NCBI RefSeq assembly: GCF_023721715.1
Contig: NZ_JAMDLG010000001.1
Span: 3,857,655-3,921,654 of the forward strand
From: Parasegetibacter sp. NRK P23
GTDB lineage: Bacteria; Bacteroidota; Bacteroidia; Chitinophagales; Chitinophagaceae
Direction of reading: 5' to 3'
Length of the DNA: 64,000 bases
This document shows positions 5,985-34,138 of the stretch, in pieces (the stretch's first letter is position 1; each line of letters begins with the position of its first letter). The notes under the pieces were generated by a model. The model was not told the origin of the DNA and searched no databases. It saw nothing but the letters and a program-made list of their open reading frames with translations. A program made the position numbers and the translations under genes.

Positions 5985-8207
5985 TTGCACATGAAACCTT
6001 CTCTTCTCCTTATCCTGCTGGCCGTTTGCGCTTTTTCCCGCGCACAAACCGTCAATTATAAACTAAACGCCGGGTTTGAAGCGGATCCCGCCAATGGTGT
6101 ACTCCGAGAATGGAACTGGTACAACTCAACTGGTTATGAAGGCGGTATTGATTCCACTGTAAGCTATTCCGGCAAAAACGCTTTTTATATTAAAAGCACC
6201 ACTGCTCCAAACCCTGCGCAATATGGTGCGATGGGCATCAATATTCCCGCGAGGAAAGGGCAGCAACTGACGATGGAAGGTTACCTGAAACTGGAAAATG
6301 TACAGAACGGCTTAGCGGGTTTTTACCTCGCCATCATCGGCAAAAACGGCACGATTCAGAAAACAGATCTTTCAGAGAGCGGTGTATCGGGAACACAACC
6401 CTGGAAAAAATACAAAGTTTCTATTCCCTTAAGTGCCGATGCACGTACTGTAAATGTAGCGGCCGTAATGGCGGGACAAGGGCAACTATGGATTGACGAT
6501 ATCACACTTTCTATAGATGGAAAACCTTTTGAACAATCGGATACCGTATCAGCACCGTTGGCTGAATCGGATACATCCTTTTCAAATGGCTCACGTATAA
6601 ATGAAATTGCCCCGTCGGCGGCTACTAACGCCGCGCTTGTTTTGCTGGGCCAGGTGTGGGGCTTTGTGAAATACCATCATCCCGCGGTAGCGGCCGGAAA
6701 CTTTAACATGGACGCGGAACTTTTTCGTTTCATGCCCATCTACCTCGCAACTGCTCAACCTGCTGATCAGCAACGCCTGCTGTACAACTGGGTTAAAAAG
6801 TTCGGCGCGGTGAAAACAAAAAAGGATACGGCGCTATCCCTCAAACCATTCCTCGAAACGGATATTTCCTGGCTAACGGAGCAATCGCTGGGAAAGGAAC
6901 TGCATCAATTGTTGCGCGATATTTACCACGCGGAACGTAAGAACCAGCATTACTACATTGCCATGGCGCAAGGTGTGGGTAACCCGGTTATCAAAAATGA
7001 GCTCCCCTACGCAAAAATGCACTTTTCAGATGCGGGACTTCGCATACTCGCGCTGTACCGGTATTGGAACCTGATACAATACTTCTTCCCTTATCGCAAC
7101 CTGTTGGAGGAGAACTGGAACACAACATTGGAGTGCTTTGTTCCACGTTTCGCTTATGCTACTTCTGAAAAGGAATACAAACTAGCCTTACTTCAACTGA
7201 TCGGAAGTATTCATGATACCCATGCGAATGTGTGGGGCAATGAAGCTGTTCTGGCCGAATTCTTTGGCAAAAGATATGGACCGCTCTCCGTGGTATTCGT
7301 GGAAGATAAACCCGTGGTAACAGGATACCTCAACGATTCCCTTGGAAAGAAGACCGGAATATTGCCCGGTGATGTGATTGAAAAAATAAACGGCATTCCC
7401 GCGAATGAGTTGGTGCAGAACCGCATTCCTTATTTTCCCGCATCGAACCTGCCCACAAAAATGCGTGATATAGGACGTGATTTTTTACGGTCGAATGATT
7501 CCACATTGTCCGTTACTTTCAACAGGGATGGGAAGTCTTTTGAAAAGATGATCCCAACGTATACACCCATGCAAGTGAATGTGTATAAAAGGTATTCAGC
7601 TAAAGATACCTGTTTTGGTATGGCTGCACCTGGCATTGCCTGGATATACCCGGGTAAAATAAAGAATGCTTACCTGCCGGCCATAAAAAATGAACTGAAA
7701 AACACAAAAGGCCTGATCATCGACCTGCGCTGCTATCCTTCAGATTTTACGGTGTTTACGTTGGGCGGCTTCCTGGTTCCGAAGTCCACGCCATTTGTGA
7801 AGTTCTCATTTGGTGGTATCCTGATGCCAGGCACGTTCTACCAGGGACAACAACTTAATATTGCACCGACAGATTCCCATACCTACAAAGGAAAGGTTGT
7901 GATTCTCATCAACGAACTTACGCAAAGCCAGGCCGAATATACTACGATGGCATTCAGAACCGCACCTGGAGCTCTGGTGCTGGGCAGTACAACCGCTGGC
8001 GCAGATGGAAATGTTTCCGGCTTCATTCTTCCGGGGAATGTGAGCACCATGTTCAGCGGGATTGGCGTTTATTATCCTGATGGCCGGGAAACACAGCGTG
8101 TGGGCATAATACCGGATATTGAATGTAAGCCAACCATCGCGGGGATAAAAGCGGGCAGAGACGAACTCATGGAAAAGGCAATCGAACTAATCAACAAAGA
8201 AAGATAA
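5985..8207 (+). CDS. S41-family peptidase (tail-specific/tricorn-core-like) with N-terminal CBM-like beta-sandwich and a PDZ domain
   Basis: Signal peptide. PDZ motif (ILPGDVIEKINGIPANEL). S41 catalytic region (LINELTQSQAEYTTMAFRTAPGALVLGSTTAGADG). Confidence 0.75.
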   Translation: MHMKPSLLLILLAVCAFSRAQTVNYKLNAGFEADPANGVLREWNWYNSTGYEGGIDSTVSYSGKNAFYIKSTTAPNPAQYGAMGINIPARKGQQLTMEGYLKLENVQNGLAGFYLAIIGKNGTIQKTDLSESGVSGTQPWKKYKVSIPLSADARTVNVAAVMAGQGQLWIDDITLSIDGKPFEQSDTVSAPLAESDTSFSNGSRINEIAPSAATNAALVLLGQVWGFVKYHHPAVAAGNFNMDAELFRFMPIYLATAQPADQQRLLYNWVKKFGAVKTKKDTALSLKPFLETDISWLTEQSLGKELHQLLRDIYHAERKNQHYYIAMAQGVGNPVIKNELPYAKMHFSDAGLRILALYRYWNLIQYFFPYRNLLEENWNTTLECFVPRFAYATSEKEYKLALLQLIGSIHDTHANVWGNEAVLAEFFGKRYGPLSVVFVEDKPVVTGYLNDSLGKKTGILPGDVIEKINGIPANELVQNRIPYFPASNLPTKMRDIGRDFLRSNDSTLSVTFNRDGKSFEKMIPTYTPMQVNVYKRYSAKDTCFGMAAPGIAWIYPGKIKNAYLPAIKNELKNTKGLIIDLRCYPSDFTVFTLGGFLVPKSTPFVKFSFGGILMPGTFYQGQQLNIAPTDSHTYKGKVVILINELTQSQAEYTTMAFRTAPGALVLGSTTAGADGNVSGFILPGNVSTMFSGIGVYYPDGRETQRVGIIPDIECKPTIAGIKAGRDELMEKAIELINKER

Positions 8208-8237
8208 ATTACTATTTTAGTTGTTAAACCCCTTTCC

Positions 8238-10310
8238 ATGAACGCAACCGTTTCGGCGTCCTTCCAGCAACAGGCAACCAGAGCCGTTTCTTCCATTGTA
8301 TTATTTGTGTTGGTATACCTCTTCCTCTTTATTGCCGTGCTCGGCCTTTCGGTGCTTTGTGTGTACGGTGGGGTGATGCTCATTCTCGCAAAGCCCTCTT
8401 TTATTACGCTGATGCTTGGCGGTGGAATGGTGGGCCTGGCTTTTTTTGTGTTCTACTTCATCATAAAATTCCTTTTTTCAAGAAATAAAGTAGACCGCTC
8501 CGCGCTGCTGGAAGTGTCTGCAACGGAAGAACCGGCGCTCTTCGAGTTTATCCGTGAAACCGCGGCTGAAACGGGAACGCCACTTCCCAAAAAAGTTTAC
8601 CTCTCATCCGATGTGAATGCCTGTGTGTTTTATGATTCGGGTTTCTGGAGCATGTTGCTCCCCATCAAAAAAAACCTGCAGATAGGCGTTGGCCTCGTAA
8701 ACAGTGTTACGGTTTCCGAACTAAAAGCCATCATCGCCCATGAGTTCGGACATTTCAGTCAGCGAAGCATGAAAGTGGGAAGCTATGTATACCACGTGAA
8801 CCACGTGATGTACAATATGCTCAATGATAATGAATCGTACAACAACATGATCGGCCGTTTTGCGAACATGAGCGGATATTTTTCTTTTTTTGCGGGTATC
8901 GCTGTGAAAATCGCAAACGGCATACAATGGGTGCTGCACAAAATGTACGGGTTTGTAAACTTGCGCTACATGGCGCTTTCCAGGGAGATGGAGTTCCACG
9001 CCGATGAAGTGGCCGCTTACGCCGCCGGATCAAAACCACTGGTCACTTCTTTGCTTCGACTTGATCTTTCCGCGCAGGCGCTCGATGAAACGCTTGATTT
9101 CTACAGCAGACGGATTCCGGAAAACATTACTTCCGGAAATGTATACCCGCACCACCGTTTTGTGATGCAACGCCTCGCGCATACTTCAGGTGTTCAGTTG
9201 CAACACGGTCTGCCTGATGTTACAATGGACTTCCTGAGCAGGTTCAACAAATCAAAACTGGTGGTAAAGAACCAGTGGGCCTCTCATCCGGAAACAGAAG
9301 AGCGCATCGGGAAACTTGAAATACTTGCGGTGGAAAAAGAGCAGAACAATGCAGGTGCCTGGAGCCTTTTTAAATCGCCAGCCGCCACACAGGAAAAGAT
9401 GAACGCGGTACTCTTTTCGGCCGTGTCTTATACGGAGGAGCCTGCACAACTTTCAGAGAAAGAATTCAGCTCAGCTTACATCGCCGATGCTGAAAGGTTC
9501 CGCTACCACCCGGTTTTCAATGGGTATTATGATAACAGAACCCTGAAGGCGGAAGACCTGGAACAGGTATTGAAAGAAGCTCCTGCCGATATGCCGGATG
9601 AAGCAGCCACTATTTTTTCCGCTGAAGTCGCGGAGGAAATAAGCGTACTGAATGCGCTGGAAAGCGATATCCGTTCGCTGGAAACAATCGCCGCCGGGAA
9701 TACAGGAATCAAGACGTTCGATTATAACGGTATCCGTTACACGGAAAAAGAAGCGGCTGTCGTTTTGGAAGACGCGAAAAAACAGCAGGAGATGCTGGAA
9801 GCTAAATTGCGACAACACGATCTGCTTGCGCTGAAGTTCTTTTACGCGAACGCACGCCGTTCCGGAAACGAGACACAATGGAAAGAAAGGTACAACAGGT
9901 TTTTTGAGGTGGAAGCAGCATTTAAAGCCGCGGTGGAAGAACACAATGCCTACCTTGCCACAACTGAATTTATGCGTGAAACCCAATCGTATGAGTTTAT
10001 TGAAGCAAATATGGAAGTTTTAAAACAAAAGGAAGCTCCGCTCAAAGAAAAGATGCGCAGGATATTTGAAAGCGAAGAACACCGCGCGTTAATGACGGCT
10101 TATGAAAAAGCCGCGCTGGAAAAATACCTGTCCTGCGAATGGACCTATTTCATACGTCCCGATTATTATAACGATGCGCTCGGCGTAATGTATGAAGCGC
10201 TGCAGTCTTACTACAATACAGTTTTCAATTTTTACAGAATGAAAAGAAAAGAGCTTTTCGATGGGCAGGCGGCCGGGATTTTAACGCCTGCCGAACCAAA
10301 TTTTACCTAA
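8238..10310 (+). CDS. M48-family zinc metallopeptidase (HtpX/Ste24-like). N-terminal TM helices and a long C-terminal helical/coiled-coil extension.
   Basis: HExxH motif in IIAHEFGHFSQR. Downstream EFHADE. Two or more N-terminal TM segments. Confidence 0.75.
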   Translation: MNATVSASFQQQATRAVSSIVLFVLVYLFLFIAVLGLSVLCVYGGVMLILAKPSFITLMLGGGMVGLAFFVFYFIIKFLFSRNKVDRSALLEVSATEEPALFEFIRETAAETGTPLPKKVYLSSDVNACVFYDSGFWSMLLPIKKNLQIGVGLVNSVTVSELKAIIAHEFGHFSQRSMKVGSYVYHVNHVMYNMLNDNESYNNMIGRFANMSGYFSFFAGIAVKIANGIQWVLHKMYGFVNLRYMALSREMEFHADEVAAYAAGSKPLVTSLLRLDLSAQALDETLDFYSRRIPENITSGNVYPHHRFVMQRLAHTSGVQLQHGLPDVTMDFLSRFNKSKLVVKNQWASHPETEERIGKLEILAVEKEQNNAGAWSLFKSPAATQEKMNAVLFSAVSYTEEPAQLSEKEFSSAYIADAERFRYHPVFNGYYDNRTLKAEDLEQVLKEAPADMPDEAATIFSAEVAEEISVLNALESDIRSLETIAAGNTGIKTFDYNGIRYTEKEAAVVLEDAKKQQEMLEAKLRQHDLLALKFFYANARRSGNETQWKERYNRFFEVEAAFKAAVEEHNAYLATTEFMRETQSYEFIEANMEVLKQKEAPLKEKMRRIFESEEHRALMTAYEKAALEKYLSCEWTYFIRPDYYNDALGVMYEALQSYYNTVFNFYRMKRKELFDGQAAGILTPAEPNFT

Positions 10311-10328
10311 CTTCACGTTTCACAAATG

Positions 10329-10480
10329 CACGGGGTGCTTTCCCGCAGGGAAGGCTGAGATCATACCCGGTACCTGATCTGGATAATACCAGCGGAGGAA
10401 TTGCAAAAATGGTGTTGCACATCATTCGGGCGTAAGCTCCTGTTCCCATGGTTTTCCGGGCAGGAGCTTTTGATTTTTTA
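10329..10480 (+). ncRNA. TPP (THI-box) riboswitch with terminator-type expression platform
   Basis: GGGGUGC ... GCUGAGA ... ACCCGGUACCUGAUCUGGAUAAUACCAGCGGAGGAA matches the THI element. It is followed by a 9-bp stem (aagctcctg/caggagctt) plus a U-tract at 10434..10480. Confidence 0.85.
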
Positions 10481-10498
10481 ATACGCAACACCATTACA

Positions 10499-11209
10499 AT
10501 GAAACTCGACCTGTACACACGCGGCCTGCAGCACTGGCAGGGAAGACCGGAATGGTTCTTCAACCGCGAACACACCGATACGTACGAACAATGGTATGAA
10601 GGGCGCTACAAAAGAGCGGAGATCTGGCAGAAAAAAGTGATCGGGGGCCTTATCTCGAAGGATACGCGCGTTAAAACCCTGCTGGAATTCGGTTGCGGAA
10701 CAACCCGCTTCACCCGCTGGTGGAAGAACATTGGTATCGAAGCGATGGGCGCAGATATTTCACCGCTCATGTTGGGCCAGGGCGTACGCCTTTTTGATGG
10801 TGACCTGGTGCTGGCAGATTCGCACCACATGCCTTTCAAAGACCAGACCTTCGACGCGTTGGCTTTCATCACTACCTTTGAATATTACCGTGATCCCATC
10901 CAGGTGATCCGTGAATCCGCCCGCGTAGCGAAATATGGAATCGTATTCGGGATGATGAACAGGAACTCTCCCAAAGTAGTGCGGCGCCGTATTCAGCAGG
11001 CGTTTGGCAAAAATCCTTTTTATGTAACCGCAACATTCTACACACCGGATATGCTGATGGCAAAGATCCACGAAGCGCTGAAAGGCAGGGATTATAGTAT
11101 TGAATGGACCTGCACCGGTTTGCCAAAATGGTTTCCCGTACAGCAATGGAGTGTTCCGGTAGGCGATTTCTTCGGACTCCATGTGAAATTCAATGATGTT
11201 CAACCTTAG
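10499..11209 (+). CDS. class I SAM-dependent methyltransferase (Methyltransf_11-like)
   Basis: SAM-binding motif LEFGCGTTRF. The track ORF starts at 10448, but its first 17 codons overlap the riboswitch terminator, so the start is moved to MKLDLY at 10499. Confidence 0.7.
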   Translation: MKLDLYTRGLQHWQGRPEWFFNREHTDTYEQWYEGRYKRAEIWQKKVIGGLISKDTRVKTLLEFGCGTTRFTRWWKNIGIEAMGADISPLMLGQGVRLFDGDLVLADSHHMPFKDQTFDALAFITTFEYYRDPIQVIRESARVAKYGIVFGMMNRNSPKVVRRRIQQAFGKNPFYVTATFYTPDMLMAKIHEALKGRDYSIEWTCTGLPKWFPVQQWSVPVGDFFGLHVKFNDVQP

Positions 11210-11212
11210 TCG

Positions 11213-12277
11213 ATGAGCAGTTTCGATACCACTGGAAAATTTCAGCAGGCGTTTTTTGAAGAACACCTCTATCCGAAATTTGGCCTGAACCGCCCTGAAG
11301 TGCGTGTGGGTCCCGCCTTCGGCGTGGATGTGAGCATCGTTGACCTGCCCGGGAACATGGGACTCGCCATTACCAGTGATCCGCTTTCGCTGATACCTTC
11401 ACTCGGTTACCGTGAATCGGCCTGGCTTTCCGTTCAACTCCTGGTGAATGATATGGCCACTACAGGATTTGCGCCCATGTACGCGCAATTCGTGCTCAAC
11501 CTGCCGCAGTCGCTGGATGAAAAGGGTTTCAAAGAATACTGGAACTGGATCAATCATTATTGTATTCAAACAGGCGTGGCCATTACGGGTGGGCATACCT
11601 GTAAGATAGAAGGGATGCAATCCACCATTGTGGGAGGCGGAACCATGTTTCTCACAGCATCAAGGGAGGAAATACTTACCAGTCAGGGAGCGGAACCCGG
11701 AGATGTACTTGTACTGCTGGGAGAACCGGCCTGTTCCTCCACCTCAATTCTTTCGCTGAGCTTCCCTGAAACTATCACGGAAAAACTGGGAAAGGAAGTA
11801 CAACAAAAAGCCGCTGACCTTTTCTCCAGCACTTCCGTGCTCCATCCTGCGTTGCGCGCCGCCGCATTCAATGGTCAATATCCTGGGGCGTTGAAAGCCA
11901 TGCACGATGTTACCGAAGGAGGGGTGTACGGCGCCATTTTTGAAATGGCCGTCGCTTCCGGAACAGGCGTTGAGGTTTACGCGGAGAAAATGCCCGAAGC
12001 GCCCGTGCAGCGGGAGATATGTGCGTTGTTCAATATAGATCCGTGCATCAGTGTTGGCGCGGGCGCCATGATTCTTGCCGCCAATCACCGGTACGCCGGA
12101 ATGTTGGTGAAATCGTTGGAAGAGGAAGGTTTTCATGCCGCCATTATTGGAAGCTTCCTCAACGACCCCGAAGGAAAATGGCTGGAAACAACTGAGGGAA
12201 GAACACCGTTACCCTACCCGGAAAAGGACCCGTACTGGAATGCTTTTTTCACCGCTTTAAAAAATGGATGGAAATAA
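11213..12277 (+). CDS. AIR-synthase-related (PurM superfamily; ThiL/HypE-like) protein
   Basis: PurM-like N- and C-domains (GVDVSIVDL..., TGGHT..., DVTEGG). The ThiL family belongs to this superfamily. The gene sits in a TPP-riboswitch operon. Confidence 0.65.
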   Translation: MSSFDTTGKFQQAFFEEHLYPKFGLNRPEVRVGPAFGVDVSIVDLPGNMGLAITSDPLSLIPSLGYRESAWLSVQLLVNDMATTGFAPMYAQFVLNLPQSLDEKGFKEYWNWINHYCIQTGVAITGGHTCKIEGMQSTIVGGGTMFLTASREEILTSQGAEPGDVLVLLGEPACSSTSILSLSFPETITEKLGKEVQQKAADLFSSTSVLHPALRAAAFNGQYPGALKAMHDVTEGGVYGAIFEMAVASGTGVEVYAEKMPEAPVQREICALFNIDPCISVGAGAMILAANHRYAGMLVKSLEEEGFHAAIIGSFLNDPEGKWLETTEGRTPLPYPEKDPYWNAFFTALKNGWK

Positions 12278-12286
12278 ACCATACAA

Positions 12287-12928
12287 ATGAAACGAATGAT
12301 TAAGAACGGAATTTACCTCGTGGTGGACCCGGCCATGCCGCTGATGAAATTATTGCCATTGCTGGAACAGGTATTGGAAGCGGGCGTGTCCACCGTACAG
12401 GTTTGGGATCATTTCCCGGCAGGATGCGATCCAGTTGCGTATACAAGGGCTATCATGGATATTGGGAAAAAGTTCAATGTGCCCGTGCTCATCAATCAAA
12501 ACATTGCTCTTTTCTTTGAAACAGGTGCGGATGGTATTCATTTCGACCAGGTTCCAAACCAGTATGATAAACTGAGAGAGCAAGCCGGGCCGGACTCCAT
12601 CATTGGCATCACTTGCGGAAACGATATGGAACGCGTACAATGGGCCGCCGAGAATAACATAGATTACATTTCCTTTTGTTCCATGTTCCCCTCCGCCTCT
12701 GCGGGGGTATGTGAAATCGTCAATCCGGCAAACATTTTAAAAGCCAGGGAAATATTCAGCGGCAAGATCTTTCTTTCAGGCGGCATCACGCCGGCAAACA
12801 TGGCCAATCTCGCACCGCTGAAAACGGATGGTATTGCCGTGATATCCGGTATTCTCAGCGCCGCCGATCCCGCAGGAGCCGCACGTAATTACCTGAACAC
12901 GTTTGAGCAACAGGCCACCGTACTATAA
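12287..12928 (+). CDS. thiE: thiamine-phosphate synthase (ThiE/TenI family)
   Basis: TMP-TENI fold motifs (GIYLVVDP..., QVWDHF, GADGIHFDQ, ISFCSMFPS). 213 aa. Downstream of a TPP riboswitch. Confidence 0.65.
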   Translation: MKRMIKNGIYLVVDPAMPLMKLLPLLEQVLEAGVSTVQVWDHFPAGCDPVAYTRAIMDIGKKFNVPVLINQNIALFFETGADGIHFDQVPNQYDKLREQAGPDSIIGITCGNDMERVQWAAENNIDYISFCSMFPSASAGVCEIVNPANILKAREIFSGKIFLSGGITPANMANLAPLKTDGIAVISGILSAADPAGAARNYLNTFEQQATVL

Positions 12929-12951
12929 TAACAATTAACACCAGTTTTTTT

Positions 12952-13206
12952 ATGAGCCCATCAACCATAGCAAAGCTTTGCTGCCCAATGGACAAAAGTG
13001 ATCTTGAACTGAAAATAATGTCGCGCGATACCAATGGCGATATCGTAGAAGGCTTGCTTACCTGCCCTTCCTGCCAACGTTATTACCCTATTGTATATGG
13101 TGTGCCCATTATGCAGCCTGATGAGTACCGGGAGCAGCAGCTGGAAAAACCAATATTGGACCGTTGGGGTGTACAAGCTGCGCTGCCCGCAACTACCAAC
13201 CAATAG
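12952..13206 (+). CDS. Trm112/YcaR-like zinc-ribbon protein
   Basis: CP..C ... CPSC ... YPIVYGVPIM pattern of the Trm112p/DUF343 family. Confidence 0.55.
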   Translation: MSPSTIAKLCCPMDKSDLELKIMSRDTNGDIVEGLLTCPSCQRYYPIVYGVPIMQPDEYREQQLEKPILDRWGVQAALPATTNQ

Positions 13207-13428: not shown

Positions 13429-13926
13429 ATGAAAAAGGCGCCGGATCTGCACTCCCACATAAATATACCAAAGGCCATATTCCTGTTTTTGTTTGTAACA
13501 GGTTCATGGATAACATGTTTGGCACAACAACCCTCCGTTTCCGTTAAGCAATTTTCCTGGCTCGCGGGCAAATGGAAAAATACGGAACGGAACAGCTTTG
13601 AATACTGGAAGTTTAATGAAGACAGTAGCCTGCTGACCGGTTATTCATTCAGCATAAAAGAGGGCGATACCACCATTACCGAAAAACTCCAGTTTGTATG
13701 CGAAGGACCCACCTGTTATTACGTGGCCGATGTTCCCGACAATGGCAAGCCCATACGTTTCGCGATGATGCAGCATACACCGAACGGTTTTCGTTCCGAG
13801 AACCAGCAGCACGATTACCCGAAATACATTGAATACAAACTGGAAGGGCCGGGAAAATTAAGGGCGGAAGTGGGCGACGCCACCCGAAAACAGGTCTTTA
13901 ACTTTGAACGGCAGGATAAGCTATAA
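13429..13926 (+). CDS. secreted hypothetical protein
   Basis: Signal peptide. No catalytic motif recognised. Confidence 0.55.
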   Translation: MKKAPDLHSHINIPKAIFLFLFVTGSWITCLAQQPSVSVKQFSWLAGKWKNTERNSFEYWKFNEDSSLLTGYSFSIKEGDTTITEKLQFVCEGPTCYYVADVPDNGKPIRFAMMQHTPNGFRSENQQHDYPKYIEYKLEGPGKLRAEVGDATRKQVFNFERQDKL

Positions 13927-14467
13927 CGTATAAGAATACACGTTTTTTTGAAGAGGCCACCATCTTTATTTTGTTTTCTTCGATCAGTTTTTTCAATGCA
14001 TTGCTGATAGTGGAACTCGAAGGCTGAATGGCATAATCCTCTTTTAAAAGCATCCTGATCGTTTTTACTTCCCGGGGTTCATTCAAAAAGCCGGAAGGCA
14101 GTACCCGCTCCCGTAAAATCGACAATACTTTATTGGCGGCGAGTTTTTCCCGGTAATCTTTTAGCTCGTCCGGATTTTTCGCTTTGATATACGCTTCGGA
14201 ACTTTCTTTCAGCAAAGAAAAATCGGGCACTGAAAAAGTTTTGGAAGGATCGAACAGGTCATAATTCACGCCGAAAAAACTACAGATATGATAACGATGG
14301 TGTTGGTTGAAACGAATGCTGCCTTTCTCGATACCTGCAATCGTATTCAGCGAGAACCTGCAACCCCTCGCAAGGTCGTTTTGTGCAATGCCAAGCCGCA
14401 GTCGTAACTGAATGATACGCTTCCCGATCAGCTGTGATTCTTCCGCTAAAATTTGCTCAACATTCAC
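13898..14467 (-). CDS. XRE-family (HTH_3) transcriptional regulator
   Basis: HTH: IGKRIIQLRLRLGIAQNDLARGCRFSLNTIAGIEKG. Confidence 0.7.
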   Translation of the reverse strand: MNVEQILAEESQLIGKRIIQLRLRLGIAQNDLARGCRFSLNTIAGIEKGSIRFNQHHRYHICSFFGVNYDLFDPSKTFSVPDFSLLKESSEAYIKAKNPDELKDYREKLAANKVLSILRERVLPSGFLNEPREVKTIRMLLKEDYAIQPSSSTISNALKKLIEENKIKMVASSKKRVFLYVIAYPAVQS

Positions 14468-14786
14468 CGGGCAAAGAGAGATATCCGTTTAATTTTATTT
14501 TGCTCAATATTTTGATGAATAATAAATTGACCTATATTTGTTGCACCACACACCGTTTTTTCACCACCACATTTATGGGTTTATTTCTCACCGGCTTACG
14601 GTGAAAGCACGATTGCTGTTCCTTTCAGGATGAACTAGCTTTCAGTTTTTATTTCACGCCACCCACCACAAGGCATTCCTGGTTGATGTACACGATGCGG
14701 AGATACTTACGCGGAAGAGTCGCAACGATTACCATAAAGACTACGCATCGGCCACGATATCAATTATTAACCAAAACCAACTGTAA

Positions 14787-15830
14787 ATGAAAAAACTACT
14801 CTTTTTCATGCTGGGTACCTGTGTGCTGTTACTGAACGGAATGGCGCAAAAAACTTCTGTACCAGACCTTTCCATGGCGTTGAAACCCGGGGAAAAAGTT
14901 CCGGATATTACGCTGAATAACCTGCTTAATTATAAAGAGAACACCGCGAAACTTTCAGATTTTGAAGGGAAGCTGGTAATACTCGACTTTTTCGCCACCT
15001 GGTGCACATCCTGTGTGGGAGCCCTGCCGCATCTTGACGCTTTGCAAAAGCAAAGAAACGATGTGAAAATATTGGTCGTGACTTCTGAACCGAAGGAAAA
15101 AGTAAAAGCATTTTTTGAACGGAACAAATTATTGAAAGGGCTGGAGTTAACCCTGGTAACGGAAGACACTACATGTAAGCAATTTTTCCCCCACCAACTT
15201 ATACCCCATGAAGTCTGGATCAGCGGAAACCGGGTCCTGAAAGCTGTTACCGAGGCAGAATATGTTACTGCCGACAAAATAAACGAGGCGCTCGCAGGAA
15301 AAGAAATTTCCTGGGTAATGAAAGACGATTTTTTCACTTTCGATCATTCAAAACCACTGAAACCCTTACTGGATAAGGTAACTGCCGCGCCAGGAAAATC
15401 TTTCTATTCCGGCTTTACGGGTTATATACACGGTCCGGGTTTTTTGAAAGAAGGACTGATCACAGATTCCGCAGCACAAACAACCAGGTTTTACATCCTC
15501 AACGCGCCTGTCCTGAACATGTATTACAAAGCCTTTAAAGAAGAGCGGCTGGGATTCCTTAAATCTCCAGCGCATAGAGCGCTACTGGTAAAGGACACCT
15601 TGCAATACCTGTACGATCCCGCTATCCATAAGTATAAAAGAGAGTGGCAAAAAAAATACGCTTTCTGCTACGAATCCGCCTGGCCAATCGGAACTCCGGA
15701 AGCTGTTATGCGGGAAAAACTAAAGCATGATATTGACCATTATTTCGGCCTTGAAGGAAACATCCGGAACACCTCCACAGGGTTAAAACAGTTTGTGCTG
15801 AAAGAAACAATGATTTCCTCAAAACGATAA
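14787..15830 (+). CDS. TlpA-like thioredoxin-fold thiol-disulfide oxidoreductase with long C-terminal extension
   Basis: Signal peptide. WCTSC (CxxC) motif in ILDFFATWCTSCVGALPHL. Confidence 0.7.
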   Translation: MKKLLFFMLGTCVLLLNGMAQKTSVPDLSMALKPGEKVPDITLNNLLNYKENTAKLSDFEGKLVILDFFATWCTSCVGALPHLDALQKQRNDVKILVVTSEPKEKVKAFFERNKLLKGLELTLVTEDTTCKQFFPHQLIPHEVWISGNRVLKAVTEAEYVTADKINEALAGKEISWVMKDDFFTFDHSKPLKPLLDKVTAAPGKSFYSGFTGYIHGPGFLKEGLITDSAAQTTRFYILNAPVLNMYYKAFKEERLGFLKSPAHRALLVKDTLQYLYDPAIHKYKREWQKKYAFCYESAWPIGTPEAVMREKLKHDIDHYFGLEGNIRNTSTGLKQFVLKETMISSKR

Positions 15831-15839
15831 ACAACAGTT

Positions 15840-18809
15840 ATGAAGAAGTGTGTGATGCTTATACTGGTGCTGTTGTGGGCGGGCGCGTGTAAACTCTTCG
15901 CCCAGGAAAAACAGGATTCGGCGATACCGAAAGTAAAAGAATTGGAAGAAGTAATTATAAGTACGGGATACCAAACCATTCCCAAAGAAAGAAGTACGGG
16001 GTCTTTCGCAACCATTGACAATAAGCTGCTGAATGAAAGGGTGACCACATCTATAATGGAGCGGTTGGATGGAACCACCGCCGGACTAACGTTCAATAAA
16101 GGAACGGGGGCGGGTATAACGCTCAGGGGACTCAGCACGCTTGGTGGTATGGCCGATAATCAATTGCTGATTATCGTTGACAATTTCATTTACAATGGAA
16201 ATATCGCGGATATTAACCCCAACGATGTACAACAGGTAACCCTGCTTAAAGATGCCGCCGCCGCATCTATCTGGGGCGCTAAAGCAGGAAATGGCGTGAT
16301 CGTGATTACAACCAAAAAAGGGAAATTCTCTCAGCCCGCGAAAATTTCACTCCATGTGAACATGAGGGTGTTACCTGAGCAGGACTTGTTTTTTGAGCCC
16401 ACCATGCCGGTGCCGGAATATATAGCGCTACAGGAGGACCTTTTTGAAAAGGGATACTATAATACGATGCTGAATAGTACGGCGCCAACTACAATTGTTA
16501 ACCCCGTGGCGGAAATCCTGGGAAAACACAGGGCGGGGACGTTATCAGACGAACAAAAACGTTATTTACTGGATTCCATTGGAAGAAATGACTTGAGAAA
16601 TGATTTCAGGAAGTATTTCTACCGGCCAGCCGTAAGTCAGCAGTACGCCTTGAACGTGTCCGGGGGAAGCGGAAATATGACGTACTATTTTTCAGCGGGC
16701 TTTGACAGATCGAATGCGGAAGTGATCGGTAACCACCAGTCCCGGGCCACCATCCGGCAACAAATGAATTTTAAGGCCACGAATCGACTGGAAATTAGCA
16801 CAACGCTTCAGTATGTAAAGAACGACGCTACTACCGGAACGGAACCCCTTTTGCTGCAAACGCCCTGGCCATACGCCAAGCTGGCGGATGAGCAGGGCAA
16901 CCCTTTAGCGCTTCCTTATGAATACCGGCAATCCTATAAAGACACCGCGGGAAACGGCAAACTGCTGGATTGGAACTTCCGTCCATTGGAGGAGATGCGT
17001 CTCGCCGATCGTTCCGAACGGGGCGAAGATCTTTTGATGAATATTGGCATCACCTTCCGCATGCTGAAAGGAATGGATGTAACGGCGATGTACCAGCGCC
17101 AGTCGGGCAATACAGCCGCGCAGGACTACCGGAGTAAAGAATCTTATTTTACCCGAAGCCGGATCAATCAGTTTACGCCCCCGGGAGGAACGTACCAGAG
17201 CAGTGCCGTTCCTTATGGCGGGATTTTATTGTACCAGAATAGCCGTCAACTTTCGCAACAGGCGCGCGCGCAAATTTCCTACAACCGGGAATGGAACAAT
17301 CATGCAGTGGCCACGATTGCAGGATCGGAAATACAACATACAGAAGCGGAGGCAGACAACTCCTTTTTATATGGATTCGATAAAAACCTGCTTACCTCAT
17401 CCAACGCAGATTTACTCAGGTTGCACCCAAGATATATGGGAGGTTCCGCCAGTATAGCACTCCCAACGTTACGCGCCGGTACCAGCACCAGACAGGTTTC
17501 GTTTTTTACGAACGCGACCTATACCTACAAAGAACGGTATGCGCTTTCAGGAAGCGCCAGAAGAGACGCCTCTAATCTGTTCGGGGTTTCTACAAATAAT
17601 AAATGGACCCCGTTGTGGAGCGCCGGCGCAGCCTGGACCTTGTCAAAGGAGCCCTTCTTTAATGTGAATTGGATAGATATGCTGAAACTCCGGGCGACGT
17701 ATGGGTATCAGGGGAATACCAATACTTCCGTAGCCGGGGTGCTTACGATCCGGTACAGCCCTGGTGCCGATGTACTCACCAATGTACCAATCGCTTCGGT
17801 AAGCAATGTGCCTAATCCCGATCTGCGTTGGGAAAGGGTGGGCCAGACAAATATCGGGACCGACTTCTCGCTTTGGGCCGGCAGACTCAGTGGATCGCTG
17901 GAATATTATTTTAAGAATTGTACTGACCTTGTTGCCAATGCTCCTATTGATCCAACACTGGGGGCGGGGGATGAAATCATGAAGAACAGCGCGGTGCTTC
18001 ATACAAAAGGAGTTGACGTTTCACTCACCGGAAAGCTGGTGGATAAAGCGATCAAATGGAGTACAACGGCTTTTTTAACCTGGAACACCAACAAGGTTAA
18101 AAAGTACCTGCTCTCTCCATCCATTGCCCGCGACCTTGTAGAGAATGGCGGTGCCATCAATCCCGTGGAAGGAAGAGAAGCGTATGCATTGGTGGCATAC
18201 CCTTTCGCCGGACTGGACCCCGATACCGGTGCCGCCCTTGGAATATTGAACGGGCAACCGTCCGGCGATTACGCGGCGATACAGGTTGAAACAAAAGCTA
18301 CCGACCTTTATACGCCCGGCTCATCAAGGCCGGAGTATGTGATGGGGCTCCGGAATATGGTTTCGTGGAAAGGGATCGATCTTTCTTTTAACCTGACGGG
18401 AAACTTTAAATACTGGCAGCACCGCACTTATGCCGGTTCCGGCATCTTCAACGGCGGTCTTACTGGATATCAGGATTACATGAACAGGTGGCAGCTGCCC
18501 GGAGATGAATTGCATACCAACTTACCGGCGATTACTTACCCGGTGAACCTGCAGCAGGAAAATTTCTACCGGCAATCCGCTGCCATGGTGGTACGGAGAG
18601 ACCATATCAGGTTGCAGAATATACACCTGAATTATACTTTCTCCAAGACCACATTACGCGTGTTCAGTAACGTGTCTTTTTACACGAACCTTTTTAATGT
18701 GGCGGTGCTTTGGAAGTCAAATAAAGAGAAAGGTGATCCGGATGCCGGAAAATCTTTCCAGCAACTGAGAACGACCTACGCTGCCGGTTTTAAACTGAAT
18801 TTCAAATAA
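15840..18809 (+). CDS. SusC/RagA-family TonB-linked outer-membrane receptor
   Basis: 989 aa. Signal peptide, CarboxypepD_reg-like N-terminus, TonB-box/plug, and a C-terminal beta-barrel ending in F. Immediately followed by SusD. Confidence 0.9.
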   Translation: MKKCVMLILVLLWAGACKLFAQEKQDSAIPKVKELEEVIISTGYQTIPKERSTGSFATIDNKLLNERVTTSIMERLDGTTAGLTFNKGTGAGITLRGLSTLGGMADNQLLIIVDNFIYNGNIADINPNDVQQVTLLKDAAAASIWGAKAGNGVIVITTKKGKFSQPAKISLHVNMRVLPEQDLFFEPTMPVPEYIALQEDLFEKGYYNTMLNSTAPTTIVNPVAEILGKHRAGTLSDEQKRYLLDSIGRNDLRNDFRKYFYRPAVSQQYALNVSGGSGNMTYYFSAGFDRSNAEVIGNHQSRATIRQQMNFKATNRLEISTTLQYVKNDATTGTEPLLLQTPWPYAKLADEQGNPLALPYEYRQSYKDTAGNGKLLDWNFRPLEEMRLADRSERGEDLLMNIGITFRMLKGMDVTAMYQRQSGNTAAQDYRSKESYFTRSRINQFTPPGGTYQSSAVPYGGILLYQNSRQLSQQARAQISYNREWNNHAVATIAGSEIQHTEAEADNSFLYGFDKNLLTSSNADLLRLHPRYMGGSASIALPTLRAGTSTRQVSFFTNATYTYKERYALSGSARRDASNLFGVSTNNKWTPLWSAGAAWTLSKEPFFNVNWIDMLKLRATYGYQGNTNTSVAGVLTIRYSPGADVLTNVPIASVSNVPNPDLRWERVGQTNIGTDFSLWAGRLSGSLEYYFKNCTDLVANAPIDPTLGAGDEIMKNSAVLHTKGVDVSLTGKLVDKAIKWSTTAFLTWNTNKVKKYLLSPSIARDLVENGGAINPVEGREAYALVAYPFAGLDPDTGAALGILNGQPSGDYAAIQVETKATDLYTPGSSRPEYVMGLRNMVSWKGIDLSFNLTGNFKYWQHRTYAGSGIFNGGLTGYQDYMNRWQLPGDELHTNLPAITYPVNLQQENFYRQSAAMVVRRDHIRLQNIHLNYTFSKTTLRVFSNVSFYTNLFNVAVLWKSNKEKGDPDAGKSFQQLRTTYAAGFKLNFK

Positions 18810-18825
18810 ACACCTAAACTGTTTT

Positions 18826-20193
18826 ATGAAAAAGTACATCAGCATATATGTGTGTCTGCTTTCTTTAATAGGGCTCGCTTCCTGCAAGAAATTCCTGGAG
18901 GAGAAGTCCGACAAAAAGCTTGCGATCCCGGAAACGCTAAGTGATTACCAGGCCCTGATCAACAGCACATCCACCATGAATGTGAGGTTCTGCGGACTGG
19001 CTGAGGTGGGCAGTGACAATTATTATATCCGCGATAAAGAATGGGCCGCGCTGGACGATGAGCCCAGGCTGGCATATACCTGGGAATGGAATGGTGTTTC
19101 TAACGGGCATTGGTCCAACCTTTACGCCATCATATTCCGGGCAAACCTGGTACTGGAGAATATAGGCGAACTCAAGGTTTTGCCTGCGCAGACAGAAGAG
19201 AAAAGACAGTTGGAGGGGAAAGCGCTTTTCTTCCGGGCAATGGCACACTTTAATGTGGCCCAGGTTTGGGCGCCCGCCTATAAAAAAGGAGGGGAAAATG
19301 ACCAGCCGGGTATTCCGTTGCGCAGTTCATACGATATCAATGAACCGGTAACAAGATCAACAGTGGAGCAAACTTATGGGCATATTGTAGAAGACCTTCG
19401 CAAAGCATCGGAACTTGTTCCTGTTCAGGTGACACACAAGGCCATTCCCGGCAAAGCCGCTGTTTTGGCGTTATTGGCAAGGGTGTATCTTTCTATGAAT
19501 GATTTTGAAAACGCTTTGCTGTATGCGGATTCAACACTTTTGTACAATAGTGCCATACTGAATTATAATACACTGAATCCATCCTCTGCCGGTCCTGTTC
19601 CTGCTTTGAATGAAGAAGTTATTTTCCATGCGCAGTGCGTGATGGGTGGTGCAATGAACGCCACCCCCAACACGGTGGCAAAGGTGGATACAGGGTTGTA
19701 CGCGCTATACCATCAGAACGATATCCGCAAGGCTGCCTATTTTGGAAAGAACAACGACAATACCTTTTTCTTTAAAGGCGGATACGATCAGTCCAAATCT
19801 GCACCCCGTTTTATGGGGATTACCGTAAGCGAAGTATTGCTTATCAAGGCGGAATGTGAGGCGAGGCGCAACAACATAGAAGGGGCGATGGACGCACTAA
19901 ATGCGCTGCTGGTAAAAAGATGGAAGAGCGGAACCTTTGTCCCTTACCAGGCTTCTGTTCAGGATGAGGCGCTGGCTTTGATTTTGGAAGAAAGAAGGAA
20001 AGAACTTTGTTTCCGTTCCGGATTGCGGTGGATGGACCTTAAAAGGTTTAACACACTTCCCGATGAGCGGCGTTCCATCAAACGGCTATTAAATGGTGAA
20101 GAGGTAATACTTGATTCGGAGGACAAGAGATTGCTGTGGCTGATTCCGCTGGATGTGGTGCGTTTATCCGGAATAACACAGAACCCAAGGTAA
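18826..20193 (+). CDS. RagB/SusD-family nutrient-binding outer-membrane lipoprotein
   Basis: Lipoprotein signal (LASC). TPR-like SusD features. Genomic pairing with SusC. Confidence 0.85.
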   Translation: MKKYISIYVCLLSLIGLASCKKFLEEKSDKKLAIPETLSDYQALINSTSTMNVRFCGLAEVGSDNYYIRDKEWAALDDEPRLAYTWEWNGVSNGHWSNLYAIIFRANLVLENIGELKVLPAQTEEKRQLEGKALFFRAMAHFNVAQVWAPAYKKGGENDQPGIPLRSSYDINEPVTRSTVEQTYGHIVEDLRKASELVPVQVTHKAIPGKAAVLALLARVYLSMNDFENALLYADSTLLYNSAILNYNTLNPSSAGPVPALNEEVIFHAQCVMGGAMNATPNTVAKVDTGLYALYHQNDIRKAAYFGKNNDNTFFFKGGYDQSKSAPRFMGITVSEVLLIKAECEARRNNIEGAMDALNALLVKRWKSGTFVPYQASVQDEALALILEERRKELCFRSGLRWMDLKRFNTLPDERRSIKRLLNGEEVILDSEDKRLLWLIPLDVVRLSGITQNPR

Positions 20194-26037: not shown

Positions 26038-26110
26038 GGTGCGGTAGCTCAGTTGGTAGAGCAAAGGACTGAAAATCCTTGTGTCGCCGGTTCGATTCCG
26101 GCCCACACCA
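26038..26110 (+). tRNA. tRNA-Phe (GAA)
   Basis: Cloverleaf drawn by hand. D-arm GCTCAGTTGGTAGAGC. Anticodon stem-loop AAGGA-CUGAAAA-UCCUU. T-arm GCCGG-TTCGATT-CCGGC. Close to E. coli tRNA-Phe. Confidence 0.85.
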
Positions 26111-26117
26111 CGAAGAA

Positions 26118-32555: not shown

Positions 32556-32865
32556 GTTTTAAAGGTTGTTTTTTCAAAAACCACGATGCCCGCCACCGGC
32601 AAAGGCGGAATGGAATTCGTATACCAGCTGCTCCTGTTGTTCCCTTCGCTTATGTCGCTCCTGCTGAGGAACGACAGCCACGAAAAGAAGTGCGGGTCGA
32701 TCTGCCATCTTCCATCCATTGCTGGCTATTGCCTGGTTGCGGTTCCAAAGCCGCCCCACTCAAGGGAGCCGCTCTTTCAAGCGCCGGAATCTTCCGGCGG
32801 TCATAGGTTCCACAGGCGGGCAGCCTGGTTTTGTTTGCTTGTCATCATTTTTTGAGAAGCGATGG

Positions 32866-33000
32866 ACTTCTTTTTCAACATTTTGAGTGTTGTGTTCTAC
32901 CGCTGAACTATCACGTTTTGAGCGTGAGCAGGATTCGAACCCGCGCTGCATGAACTGTTGCTCTACCAACTGAGCTACCTGCGTTAGGAGGGAAGGAATC
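32866..33000 (-). other. cluster of degenerate, fragmented tRNA-like sequences (tRNA halves): a 5' half with CAA anticodon arm; a D-arm+T-arm chimera; a T-arm+3' acceptor fragment
   Basis: D-loop motifs AGCTCAGTTGGTAGAGC and AGTTCAGCGGTAGAAC. T-loops GGTTCGAATCC and GGTTCGATTCC. Perfect anticodon stem-loop CAACA-CUCAAAA-UGUUG. No full cloverleaf can be assembled. Confidence 0.5.
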
Positions 33001-33662: not shown

Positions 33663-33682
33663 TTCATTTGGTTTTATAAAAG

Positions 33683-33754
33683 CACGGGATGAAGGATTCG
33701 AACCTTCATGCACGGGTTTGGAATCCGTGTTGTTGCCAATTACATCAACCCCGC
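33683..33754 (-). tRNA. tRNA-Trp (CCA)
   Basis: Acceptor GCGGGGU/AUCCCGU (2 G-U). Anticodon loop UUCCAAA. T-arm GAAGG-TTCGAAT-CCTTC. Discriminator G. Confidence 0.7.
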
Positions 33755-33757
33755 GAA

Positions 33758-33832
33758 TGGTGGATGAAACAGGATTCGAACCTGTAACCACGGCGTTTCA
33801 AACCGCTGCTCTACCATTGGAGCTATTCATCC
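33758..33832 (-). tRNA. tRNA-Phe (GAA), second copy, CCA encoded
   Basis: Acceptor GGAUGAA/UUCAUCC. D-arm GCTCCAATGGTAGAGC. Anticodon stem GCGGU/GCCGU with loop UUGAAAC. T-arm ACAGG-TTCGAAT-CCTGT. Confidence 0.65.
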
Positions 33833-33836
33833 GTTG

Positions 33837-33908
33837 TTGGTCCGGCAGGATTTGAACCTGCAGCCTTGAACGTATCAGGTTCCTGCGCTACCATTGCGCC
33901 ACGGACCA
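33837..33908 (-). tRNA. tRNA-Ile (GAU)
   Basis: Acceptor UGGUCCG/CGGACCA. D-stem GCGC/GCGC. Anticodon loop CUGAUAC. T-arm GCAGG-TTCAAAT-CCTGC. Confidence 0.6.
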
Positions 33909-33987
33909 TTTGCCGGCTCAGAAAGATTGGAACTTTCACTGTTGTGTTCGTAGCACAGTGTTCTTTCCGGTTAAACTATAAGCCGGG

Positions 33988-34060
33988 GGTTGTCTCCGGG
34001 CCTCGAACCCTGTTCTCTTCTTTCACAGGGAGGCGCTTTACCCGTTAAGCTAAAGACAAC
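33988..34060 (-). tRNA. tRNA of uncertain identity. Anticodon loop CUGUGAA (GUG, His-like) with discriminator C73, but a weak anticodon stem.
   Basis: Perfect 7-bp acceptor GUUGUCU/AGACAAC. D-stem GCTT/AAGC. T-loop TTCGAGG. Anticodon stem CCUCC/AGAAG has two C-A mismatches. No encoded G-1. Confidence 0.4.
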
Positions 34061-34066
34061 AAACTG

Positions 34067-34138
34067 TTGTTGAGGCTGGATTCGAACCAGCATCTTCAGC
34101 GCCAAAAGCTGACGTGCTCGCCGTTGCACTACTCAACA
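34067..34138 (-). tRNA. tRNA-Gln (UUG)
   Basis: Acceptor UGUUGAG/CUCAACA (U1-A72 as in bacterial tRNA-Gln). Anticodon stem-loop UCAGC-UUUUGGC-GCUGA. T-arm GCTGG-TTCGAAT-CCAGC. Confidence 0.8.

Follow-up and report, generated by a model that had tools for sequence, protein, structure and literature searches.

What is the function of an operon that stands behind a thiamine pyrophosphate (TPP) riboswitch and encodes a methyltransferase, a HypE-like member of the PurM superfamily, a paralogue of ThiE and a Trm112-like protein? The question is raised by a locus of Parasegetibacter sp. NRK P23, which we analyzed in a stretch of 64,000 nucleotides (contig NZ_JAMDLG010000001.1, positions 3,857,655 to 3,921,654), hereafter the window, to whose numbering the coordinates given below refer. 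The answer towards which we lean, by a modest degree, is that the operon is a TPP-repressed module for the salvage of an imported thiamine-related compound. A preliminary description, made on the window sequence alone, had suggested that TPP controls a so far uncharacterised step in the salvage or modification of thiamine, thiazole or pyrimidine, and comparative genomics strongly backs this proposal: the three core enzymes (methyltransferase, HypE-like protein and ThiE paralogue) travel together across very distant lineages, and three mutually independent contexts link the unit to the thiamine regulon, namely the riboswitch, the gene of a regulator combining a ThiN domain with a helix-turn-helix (ThiN-HTH), and importer genes. 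Outside Bacteroidota the core is usually co-transcribed with a dedicated importer, and it is from these contexts that we infer a salvage function.

The leader of the operon contains a full-length match to the TPP riboswitch family of Rfam (RF00059, model positions 1 to 105) at positions 10321 to 10418 of the + strand, with a score of 60.8 bits against a gathering score of 54.3 bits and E-values of 1.8e-9 across the whole 64-kb window and 1e-11 locally. In the cmscan alignment this aptamer carries the THI-box core (GGGGUGC, CUGAGA and ACCUGAUCUGGAUAAUACCAGCG), which is invariant in 10 aligned orthologous leaders, and has a shortened P3 region; by its sequence the riboswitch appears to be an ordinary member of RF00059. 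Its Rfam start places position 10329, from which the preliminary description had begun the locus, 8 nt inside the aptamer. The expression platform (10434 to 10479, +) consists of an intrinsic-terminator-like hairpin with arms at 10434–10442 and 10461–10469 and, directly 3′ of it, a T-tract with the sequence TTGATTTTTT at 10470–10479. The hairpin has a free energy of about -19.8 kcal/mol in a hairpin-plus-T-tail scan, and it was not listed by a simple consensus terminator scan because its 18-nt loop exceeds the 3–8 nt limit of that scan. A TPP riboswitch with a terminator platform ahead of four tightly packed genes, as first described, was thus recovered on both counts.

The leader as a whole (10315 to 10510) folds significantly better than shuffled sequences (z = -4.0, RNA fold). 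In both the minimum free energy and the centroid structures, computed for this window only, positions 10409–10418 pair with 10485–10494 (+) to form a long-range helix of 10 bp, which brackets the terminator and ends 5 nt 5′ of the methyltransferase start codon; as modeled, this helix may contribute to the switching mechanism or add control at the level of translation. The region would behave as one transcription unit, in which TPP bound to the aptamer would let the terminator form and switch the four genes off, and in which scarcity of TPP would allow their expression.

Four genes follow the leader on the + strand, with gaps of 3, 9 and 23 nt. They encode a class I S-adenosylmethionine (SAM)-dependent methyltransferase of 236 aa (10499 to 11209; Pfam PF08241, Methyltransf_11), the HypE-like PurM-superfamily protein of 354 aa (11213 to 12277; PF00586, AIRS, and PF02769, AIRS_C), the ThiE/TenI-fold paralogue of 213 aa (12287 to 12928; PF02581, TMP-TENI) and the Trm112-like zinc-ribbon protein of 84 aa (12952 to 13206; PF03966, Trm112p). 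The Pfam matches bear out the four domain calls made beforehand, and the non-canonical character ascribed to the operon was upheld. None of the four window proteins reaches any NCBIfam equivalog cut-off; they represent new subfamilies of known superfamilies and do not qualify as ThiE, TenI, ThiL or HypE.

The PurM-like gene was found in at least 582 species genomes by a scan that used one genome per species, and the counts out of 80 given from here on refer to the best 80 of these loci, which belong to Chitinophagales, Sphingobacteriales, Cytophagales, Flavobacteriales, a few Bacteroidales, and Balneolales. They settle the position of the first start codon: the longest open reading frame (ORF) of the methyltransferase gene begins at 10448, at an ATG that falls within the loop of the terminator hairpin, whereas 77 of the 80 orthologous loci have an ATG at the position that corresponds to 10499, and an in-frame ATG lies farther upstream in only 10. 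The start at 10448 had already been called wrong, and rightly so, except that the “annotated” start referred to was that of the longest ORF only.

In every one of the 80 loci that is not cut by a contig end the genes follow one another in the order methyltransferase, PurM-like, ThiE-like, Trm112-like. Clustering of the neighboring ORFs revealed no fifth recurrent gene, nothing else being present in more than 7 of the 80 loci, and the block is thus self-contained, in variable surroundings. RF00059 scored above threshold directly upstream of the orthologous operon in nine out of nine diverse loci, a search with nhmmer, using a profile built from RF00059-confirmed aptamers, detected a THI-box in this position in 78 of the 80, and a comparable hairpin with a T-tail precedes the start codon in 52 of 76 orthologous leaders. 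Regulation of the block independently of thiamine, which was to be looked for alongside the Rfam match, is therefore not what these loci display. One of the two loci without a THI-box is a truncated contig; the other (L046, 5780 to 6260) has no detectable aptamer and carries, immediately 5′ of the methyltransferase gene, a coding fragment of transposase-like type, and in this locus, the only complete one of Bacteroidota without a THI-box, an insertion may have displaced the riboswitch. In two Bacteroidota loci the riboswitch is separated from the block by a TonB receptor gene.

An exhaustive search with the methyltransferase retrieved full-length relatives at 35–61% identity. The closest clear out-group methyltransferase (41%) was then used as a query and the encoding contigs were examined in ten places. 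In all ten, the methyltransferase gene is followed by a HypE-like and then by a ThiE-like gene, the last being cut by the contig end in L097, and in none of the ten is there a Trm112-like gene. The three out-group proteins are about equally diverged from those of the window (methyltransferase 35–43%, HypE-like 36–43% and ThiE-like 31–45% identity). The core is preceded by a TPP riboswitch and a TonB-dependent receptor gene in three of these loci (L088, L091 and L095), by a TPP riboswitch and the gene of an energy-coupling factor (ECF) S component in three others (L089, L094 and L096), and by an APC-family permease gene in L097. Genes for thiamine pyrophosphokinase and an SSF transporter lie 3′ of the core in L091. 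In L092 and L093 a divergent gene encodes a ThiN-domain protein with weak N-terminal matches to HTH domains, and a ykoEDC-like ECF system is found nearby in L092; the HTH-plus-ThiN architecture is that of the archaeal thiamine regulator ThiR.

The same picture emerged from a metagenome scan with the out-group methyltransferases as queries, which yielded about 54 loci with the block. The gene of an ECF S component directly precedes that of the methyltransferase in at least 39 of them, 32 of these having a detectable THI-box upstream; a divergent ThiN-HTH gene is present in 7 loci, 2 of them with an APC permease gene as well; one further locus has the APC permease gene and no ThiN-HTH gene, and 6 loci consist of the bare trio. 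A tblastn search with the E. coli proteins over 171 loci (about 1.84 Mb) detected no homologue of ThiC, ThiD, ThiM, ThiG, ThiH, ThiS or ThiF near the block, and an operon for de novo thiamine synthesis was rejected on the lack of thiC, thiG, thiS, thiF and thiH genes nearby.

The metagenome loci that carry a methyltransferase gene only (L150 to L178) were not counted as members of the system, being a more distant paralogous family, nearly all without a PurM-like or ThiE-like gene. Their methyltransferases, 37–42% identical to the out-group query, share the motif GCGTGHFTRW and an N-terminal YE.WY motif, and the family includes the structurally solved, uncharacterised TM1293 (1VLM) type. Exceptions are L169, which has the full block, and L161 and L177, which have a PurM-superfamily gene.

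Could the operon simply encode the canonical last steps towards TPP, with a true ThiE joining hydroxymethylpyrimidine (HMP) pyrophosphate to thiazole phosphate, a ThiL-like kinase and an accessory, Trm112-activated methyltransferase? TPP control, the presence of TMP-TENI and AIRS domains, and thiE and thiL among the top NCBIfam matches would all fit such an operon, and the preliminary description had indeed regarded the ThiE-like product as the one canonical thiamine enzyme. This last view could not be maintained. The protein matches PF02581 with 103 bits, but it scores 101.9 bits against thiE (TIGR00693), below the equivalog cut-off of 145.1, and 35.8 bits against TenI (NF005819), whose cut-off is 251.

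For residue mapping, 78 family members were aligned with B. subtilis ThiE, E. coli ThiE (b3993) and B. subtilis TenI, the B. subtilis ThiE sequence being taken from PDB alignments and that of TenI being checked against 1YAD; B. subtilis numbering is used. Y29, Q57, H107, Y147 and G188 are invariant in all 78 members, and at T156 (S), T158 (S/T), I208 and S209 the residue is either identical or conservatively replaced; these retained residues are taken as the contacts of the pyrimidine, the thiazole and the thiazole phosphate. R59, K61, D93, D112 and K159, which are taken as the Mg2+/pyrophosphate ligands, are identical in E. coli ThiE, but none of the five is kept in any of the 78 members or in the out-group (R59 by W in 77 of the 78, K61 by N/H, D93 by N/E/Q, D112 by P and K159 by A/S/V). 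The roles assumed for these ligands are supported by the identity of the five lost residues in the otherwise divergent ThiE proteins of E. coli and B. subtilis, by the existence in the PDB of deposited structures of the K159A and S130A ThiE mutants, and by the fact that the substitutions fall in stretches which we take to be the three active-site loops of ThiE. Residues were also gained: an invariant Asp stands at the position of G109 and an invariant Cys at that of G151, with another invariant Cys 11 residues further on. In the window protein the family-specific residues are W40, D87, C131 and C142.

The out-group ThiE paralogues carry the same signature of W, D and two Cys. The one among them that passes the thiE cut-off, and does so just barely (L089, 150.3 vs. 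145.1 bits), would speak for a canonical ThiE, yet it too has the five replacements and the W/D/two-Cys signature. Nor is the protein a canonical TenI: in addition to the low TenI score, the position of His122, the catalytic residue of TenI, is occupied in the paralogues by a non-conserved Ser or another residue. Taken at the level of sequence, this suggests that the ThiE paralogue is a third kind of TMP-TENI protein, which has probably retained the ability to bind a ligand with the shape of thiamine phosphate or of its two parts and which is predicted to be unable to use Mg-pyrophosphate in the manner of ThiE.

The second pillar of a canonical pathway, a ThiL-like kinase, fares no better. The PurM-like protein scores alike, with 57–60 bits, against the NCBIfam profiles of SelD, ThiL, PurL and HypE; for thiL (TIGR01379) the score is 58.2 bits against a cut-off of 184. 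By pairwise sequence its nearest relative is HypE, and the AlphaFold2 model (mean predicted local distance difference test score, pLDDT, of 93.3) superposes best on HypE as well, with a template-modeling score (TM) of 0.78–0.83 and a root-mean-square deviation of 2.8 Å, followed by ThiL (TM 0.60–0.73), SelD and PurM; the E-values of the PDB neighbors go down to 2e-24. In a Balneolales locus (L023) a canonical thiL, scoring 290.7 bits against the cut-off of 184, lies at 9263 to 10264 on the same strand, 23 nt downstream of the Trm112-like gene, and therefore the PurM-like protein is not the ThiL of that organism; this is the only canonical thiamine enzyme gene that adjoins the block in the 80 genome loci. 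In L137 another ThiL homologue is encoded 5 kb from the block. The suggestion of a ThiL-like kinase contained in the preliminary description was dropped on these grounds, and, the block never being found clustered with thiD, thiC, thiG or thiM, we consider the canonical last steps of TPP synthesis a distinctly unlikely function for the operon.

We likewise rejected HypE itself as the identity of the PurM-like protein. The score against the HypE equivalog is 57 bits for a cut-off of 251.6, the C-terminus ends in KNGWK and has no Cys, unlike that of HypE, and no hyp genes occur near the block in the 171 loci. The two-domain AIRS/AIRS_C fold is present, with the conserved Asp motifs for ATP binding (D39, D56, D80 and D232), together with a GGHT motif resembling the GGHS of SelD and with two invariant motifs, an N-terminal G8-K9 and a C-terminal DPYW. 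From sequence and model, the protein is thus predicted to be an ATP-dependent enzyme that is HypE-like and not ThiL. More than 1,500 relatives of it are found in databases, all generically named; the closest named one comes from a Chitinophagaceae metagenome-assembled genome (85% identity). FJOH_RS12240 of F. johnsoniae, an “AIR synthase-related protein” that appears in an evolution experiment, is a possible orthologue.

The methyltransferase (PF08241, E 3.8e-15) has an intact set of SAM motifs, with GxGxG (L62-E-F-G65-C-G67-T) and the acidic D86 after strand 2 conserved in both clades, and its relatives bear only generic names in public databases. Its AlphaFold2 model is poor (pLDDT 64, from a shallow alignment), and the Foldseek matches of this model are generic class I methyltransferases from which no substrate class can be inferred. 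What distinguishes it is its conservation: across the 80 loci it is 71–83% identical, with 58% of the positions conserved at 90% or more, compared to about 50% for the PurM-like and about 42% for the ThiE-like protein. Since the three proteins of the out-group are about equally diverged, this strong constraint is specific to the clade that acquired Trm112, the conservation of the methyltransferase rising from about 40% to about 80% only there.

The Trm112-like protein scores 33.9 bits against PF03966 (cut-off 22) and 59.4 bits against the archaeal equivalog Trm112_arch (NF038101), below its cut-off of 77, and its PDB matches are the Trm112 chains 6ZXW_H and 6F5Z_C. The invariant residues C11, D14, C38 and C41 would form a pair of knuckles, C-x2-D and C-x2-C, in which one ligand would be Asp and not Cys, and a YPI..G.P.M motif is also present. 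In the 80 loci its gene and that of the methyltransferase are always in one operon, and the two proteins match the respective chains of 6F5Z, the Trm112-Hvo_0019 complex of H. volcanii. A methyltransferase-Trm112 complex would be expected because the extreme constraint on the methyltransferase is restricted to the Trm112-bearing clade; in Bacteroidota and Balneolales the Trm112-type partner most likely binds and stabilizes the methyltransferase, and we presume that the protein is its activator or partner. That the protein belongs to a family of methyltransferase partners, as noted at first, was upheld, but its place as a component of the core was not, since it is absent from the ten out-group loci; Trm112 appears to be a later addition to a three-gene core.

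A Trm112-type holoenzyme raises another possibility, that the operon has no role in thiamine chemistry at all and serves a TPP-sparing or regulatory response, for example as a source of an enzyme that methylates RNA or a translation factor under TPP shortage, in the way that B12 riboswitches control B12-independent isozymes. The known partners of Trm112 methylate tRNA, rRNA and release factors, Bud23 and Trm11/Trm112 complexes are among the PDB matches, and the unusual conservation of the methyltransferase is what would be expected of a contact with a conserved macromolecule. In the out-group, however, the trio occurs without Trm112 and the methyltransferase is no more conserved than its neighbors; moreover, the trio is co-transcribed with vitamin-type importers and adjoins ThiN-HTH regulator genes, and the ThiE paralogue retains the contacts for the thiamine moieties. 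A response of this kind is in our opinion very improbable.

Within the salvage of an imported compound, the substrate, the order of the steps and the chemistry that we infer are as follows. The leading guess for the substrate would be a derivative of the pyrimidine moiety other than HMP pyrophosphate, for instance one of the amino- or formylamino-pyrimidine breakdown products. In a first stage the methyltransferase and the HypE-like ATP-dependent enzyme would modify or activate the imported compound, SAM methylation and a HypE-type ATP step giving it a cationic or neutral leaving group; an N-methylated aminomethyl group would be such a cationic leaving group and would suit a Trp/Asp pocket. 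An amide or formyl oxygen is the site that HypE, PurM and PurL phosphorylate, and formylaminopyrimidine, a known breakdown product, carries a group of this kind. In a second stage the ThiE paralogue would join or exchange the activated pyrimidine onto thiazole phosphate, yielding thiamine phosphate with the loss of a leaving group other than pyrophosphate. We propose a leaving group of this type because the determinants for the thiamine halves and the phosphate are kept, whereas the formerly cationic Mg-pyrophosphate pocket would now hold Trp, Asp and Cys. A cysteine of the ThiE paralogue could act as the nucleophile, as in the thiaminases and TenA, in a thiaminase-like addition-elimination. 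The complete scheme, a pyrophosphate-independent route from an imported pyrimidine breakdown product to thiamine phosphate that bypasses TenA, ThiD and ThiE, is offered as a tentative and rather doubtful specification of the salvage function.

The same residues would also accommodate a different substrate, whole thiamine damaged at or near C2 of the thiazolium, in the form of the thiazolone or of the ring-opened N-formyl thiol or disulfide. In such a repair the HypE-like enzyme would activate the carbonyl oxygen with ATP, in the manner of HypE with its S-carboxamide, and the two Cys would reduce or exchange thiols, giving thiamine phosphate. Contacts for both halves of thiamine phosphate are kept, W40, D87, C131 and C142 map to the former pyrophosphate pocket and the surrounding loops, and this pocket adjoins the bridge methylene and C2. 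Thiamine thiazolone is a cyclic S-C(=O)-N thiocarbamate, and HypE, the nearest neighbor by fold, acts on an S-C(=O)-N group; besides, the block of L091 sits within an operon of thiamine-uptake type, with the TonB receptor, thiamine pyrophosphokinase and SSF transporter genes. Repair would, however, leave the strictly conserved methyltransferase without a role, and closure of the thiol-form ring is spontaneous at neutral pH. We regard it as unlikely, although less so than the canonical last steps.

The operon might also serve, under the control of its TPP riboswitch, to make or to detoxify an antivitamin or another analogue of thiamine. The model would be the bacimethrin cluster of Clostridium botulinum, in which a SAM methyltransferase O-methylates a pyrimidine, and the operon of the window combines a methyltransferase, a TPP riboswitch and a ThiE-like coupling enzyme. 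Judged by gene content, however, the 171 loci and their surroundings lack genes for a thymidylate-synthase-like hydroxymethylase, a glycosidase and thiaminase I, and a cluster of the bacimethrin type was rejected for this reason. An operon that is vertically conserved and near-universal in several orders, in at least 582 species, is also unlike a toxin cluster, and the co-transcribed importers point to uptake. We therefore give an antivitamin function hardly any credence.

Several observations weigh against the salvage of an imported compound and have to be set beside its support. A class I methyltransferase is not known from any thiamine route, and SAM methylation has no ready place in the making of thiamine. 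The 78 of 80 Bacteroidota loci without an adjacent transporter mean that the salvage reading rests mainly on the out-group, and Kryptonia-type loci have neither riboswitch nor transporter. The link between the S component and a pyrimidine is weak: in NCBIfam and PDB searches the profile of the ECF S component gave a single, weak PDB match, 4HZU_S (E 0.0016), a chain described as a predicted hydroxymethylpyrimidine S component. The roles given to the ThiE residues are supported only indirectly, by the B. subtilis/E. coli identity. Finally, in L110 (6677 to 7888), L114 and L115, loci with a divergent ThiN-HTH regulator gene, a CoaBC gene occupies the slot of the HypE-like gene between the methyltransferase gene and that of the ThiE paralogue, and the ATP-dependent enzyme may thus be dispensable or encoded elsewhere. 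These CoaBC proteins are canonical and bifunctional (342.9 bits vs. a cut-off of 219.7); scoring as ordinary housekeeping CoaBC, they were rejected as functional substitutes for the HypE-like enzyme and treated as an insertion.

In the window, the flanks of the operon are unrelated to thiamine: S41 and M48 peptidases are encoded upstream (5985 to 10310), and DUF6265, an HTH protein, a TlpA-like thioredoxin and a SusC/SusD pair downstream (13429 to 20193). Farther away, six tRNA genes (Trp, Phe, Ile, Arg, His and Gln) are arrayed on the - strand at 33682 to 34138 with a spacing of 0–5 nt, several of them with low Rfam scores (30.9–51 bits). A partial tRNA-like match lies about 770 nt from the array (32853 to 32913), a second tRNA-Phe(GAA) is found elsewhere (26038 to 26111), and the array resembles those of mobile elements or phages. 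An ORF of 1819 aa at 41784 to 47243 (+) combines DUF7379, LCAT-like lipase, CHAT protease and TPR-S sensor domains and is reminiscent of conflict or defense effectors.

Public annotation names the trio only as “methyltransferase”, “AIR synthase-related / HypE” and “thiamine phosphate synthase”. Metabolic reconstructions of environmental Bacteroidota are wrong at the ThiE step if they count the paralogue as ThiE. Thiamine and its fragments are nutrients traded in soils, sediments, oceans and guts, and predictions of auxotrophy from genomes need all the salvage routes. A route in which no HMP pyrophosphate is needed would, if true, be the first in thiamine metabolism to make use of SAM methylation; it would add an activity to those known from the HypE branch of the PurM superfamily and provide a bacterial small-molecule pair of Trm112 and methyltransferase. 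Such a pyrophosphate-independent route would occur widely, in Bacteroidota, Balneolales, Kryptonia and further uncultured lineages. Cultured carriers include Mucilaginibacter, Pedobacter, Chryseobacterium, Pontibacter and Algoriphagus, groups in which genetic tools are available.

We found no published description of the operon in the literature that could be searched. A large survey of TPP regulons covers only Bacteroidaceae within the phylum and never mentions a methyltransferase (PMC3766115). The locus resembles known operons under TPP riboswitches in its full-length aptamer and terminator-type platform 5′ of an operon with a TMP-TENI gene, and in the importers of its relatives, and it differs from them in that no controlled gene in this window reaches a recognised family of thiamine enzymes or transporters at the equivalog level. 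With ThiE (EC 2.5.1.3; 2TPS/1G4T, b3993) the paralogue shares the TIM-barrel TMP-TENI fold and the conserved equivalents of Y29, Q57, H107, Y147, T156, T158, G188, I208 and S209; unlike it, the window family has the five ligands replaced and an Asp, a Trp and two Cys gained, and its gene is never beside thiD, thiM, thiC or thiG. TenI of B. subtilis (1YAD/3QH2) has the same fold and is also without a full pyrophosphate site, but it lacks the family-specific Cys, Asp and Trp, and the position of its His122 is unconserved in the window family. Similarly, the PurM-superfamily two-domain fold and the Asp motifs are common to the window protein and to ThiL, SelD and HypE, the carbamoyl dehydratase of [NiFe]-hydrogenase maturation, from which it is set apart by the missing C-terminal Cys tail, by the absence of hypC, hypD and hypF neighbors and by its own GK and DPYW motifs. 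As in the Trm112-methyltransferase holoenzymes of archaea and eukaryotes (Trm9, Trm11, Mtq2, Bud23 and Hvo_0019-Trm112, 6F5Z), a zinc-ribbon gene of the Trm112 family stands alongside that of a class I methyltransferase; here, however, the pair is bacterial, belongs to an operon of small-molecule type under a vitamin riboswitch, has C-x2-D in place of C-x2-C in the first knuckle, and includes a partner that related lineages can do without.

The closest functional analogy to the role that we propose is the salvage of formylaminopyrimidine in B. halodurans (ThiXYZ/ThiY, YlmB, TenA and ThiD), in which a TPP-regulated importer is combined with a few enzymes that bring a thiamine breakdown product back into the pathway (PMC3020362). 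The enzyme families have nothing in common: an amidohydrolase, the thiaminase II TenA and a kinase of the ribokinase type act there, where the operon described here would employ a methyltransferase, a HypE-like ATPase and a ThiE paralogue. The operon would represent a salvage or biosynthesis unit of the thiamine regulon whose enzymes are non-canonical, and there is a real chance that their chemistry is new.

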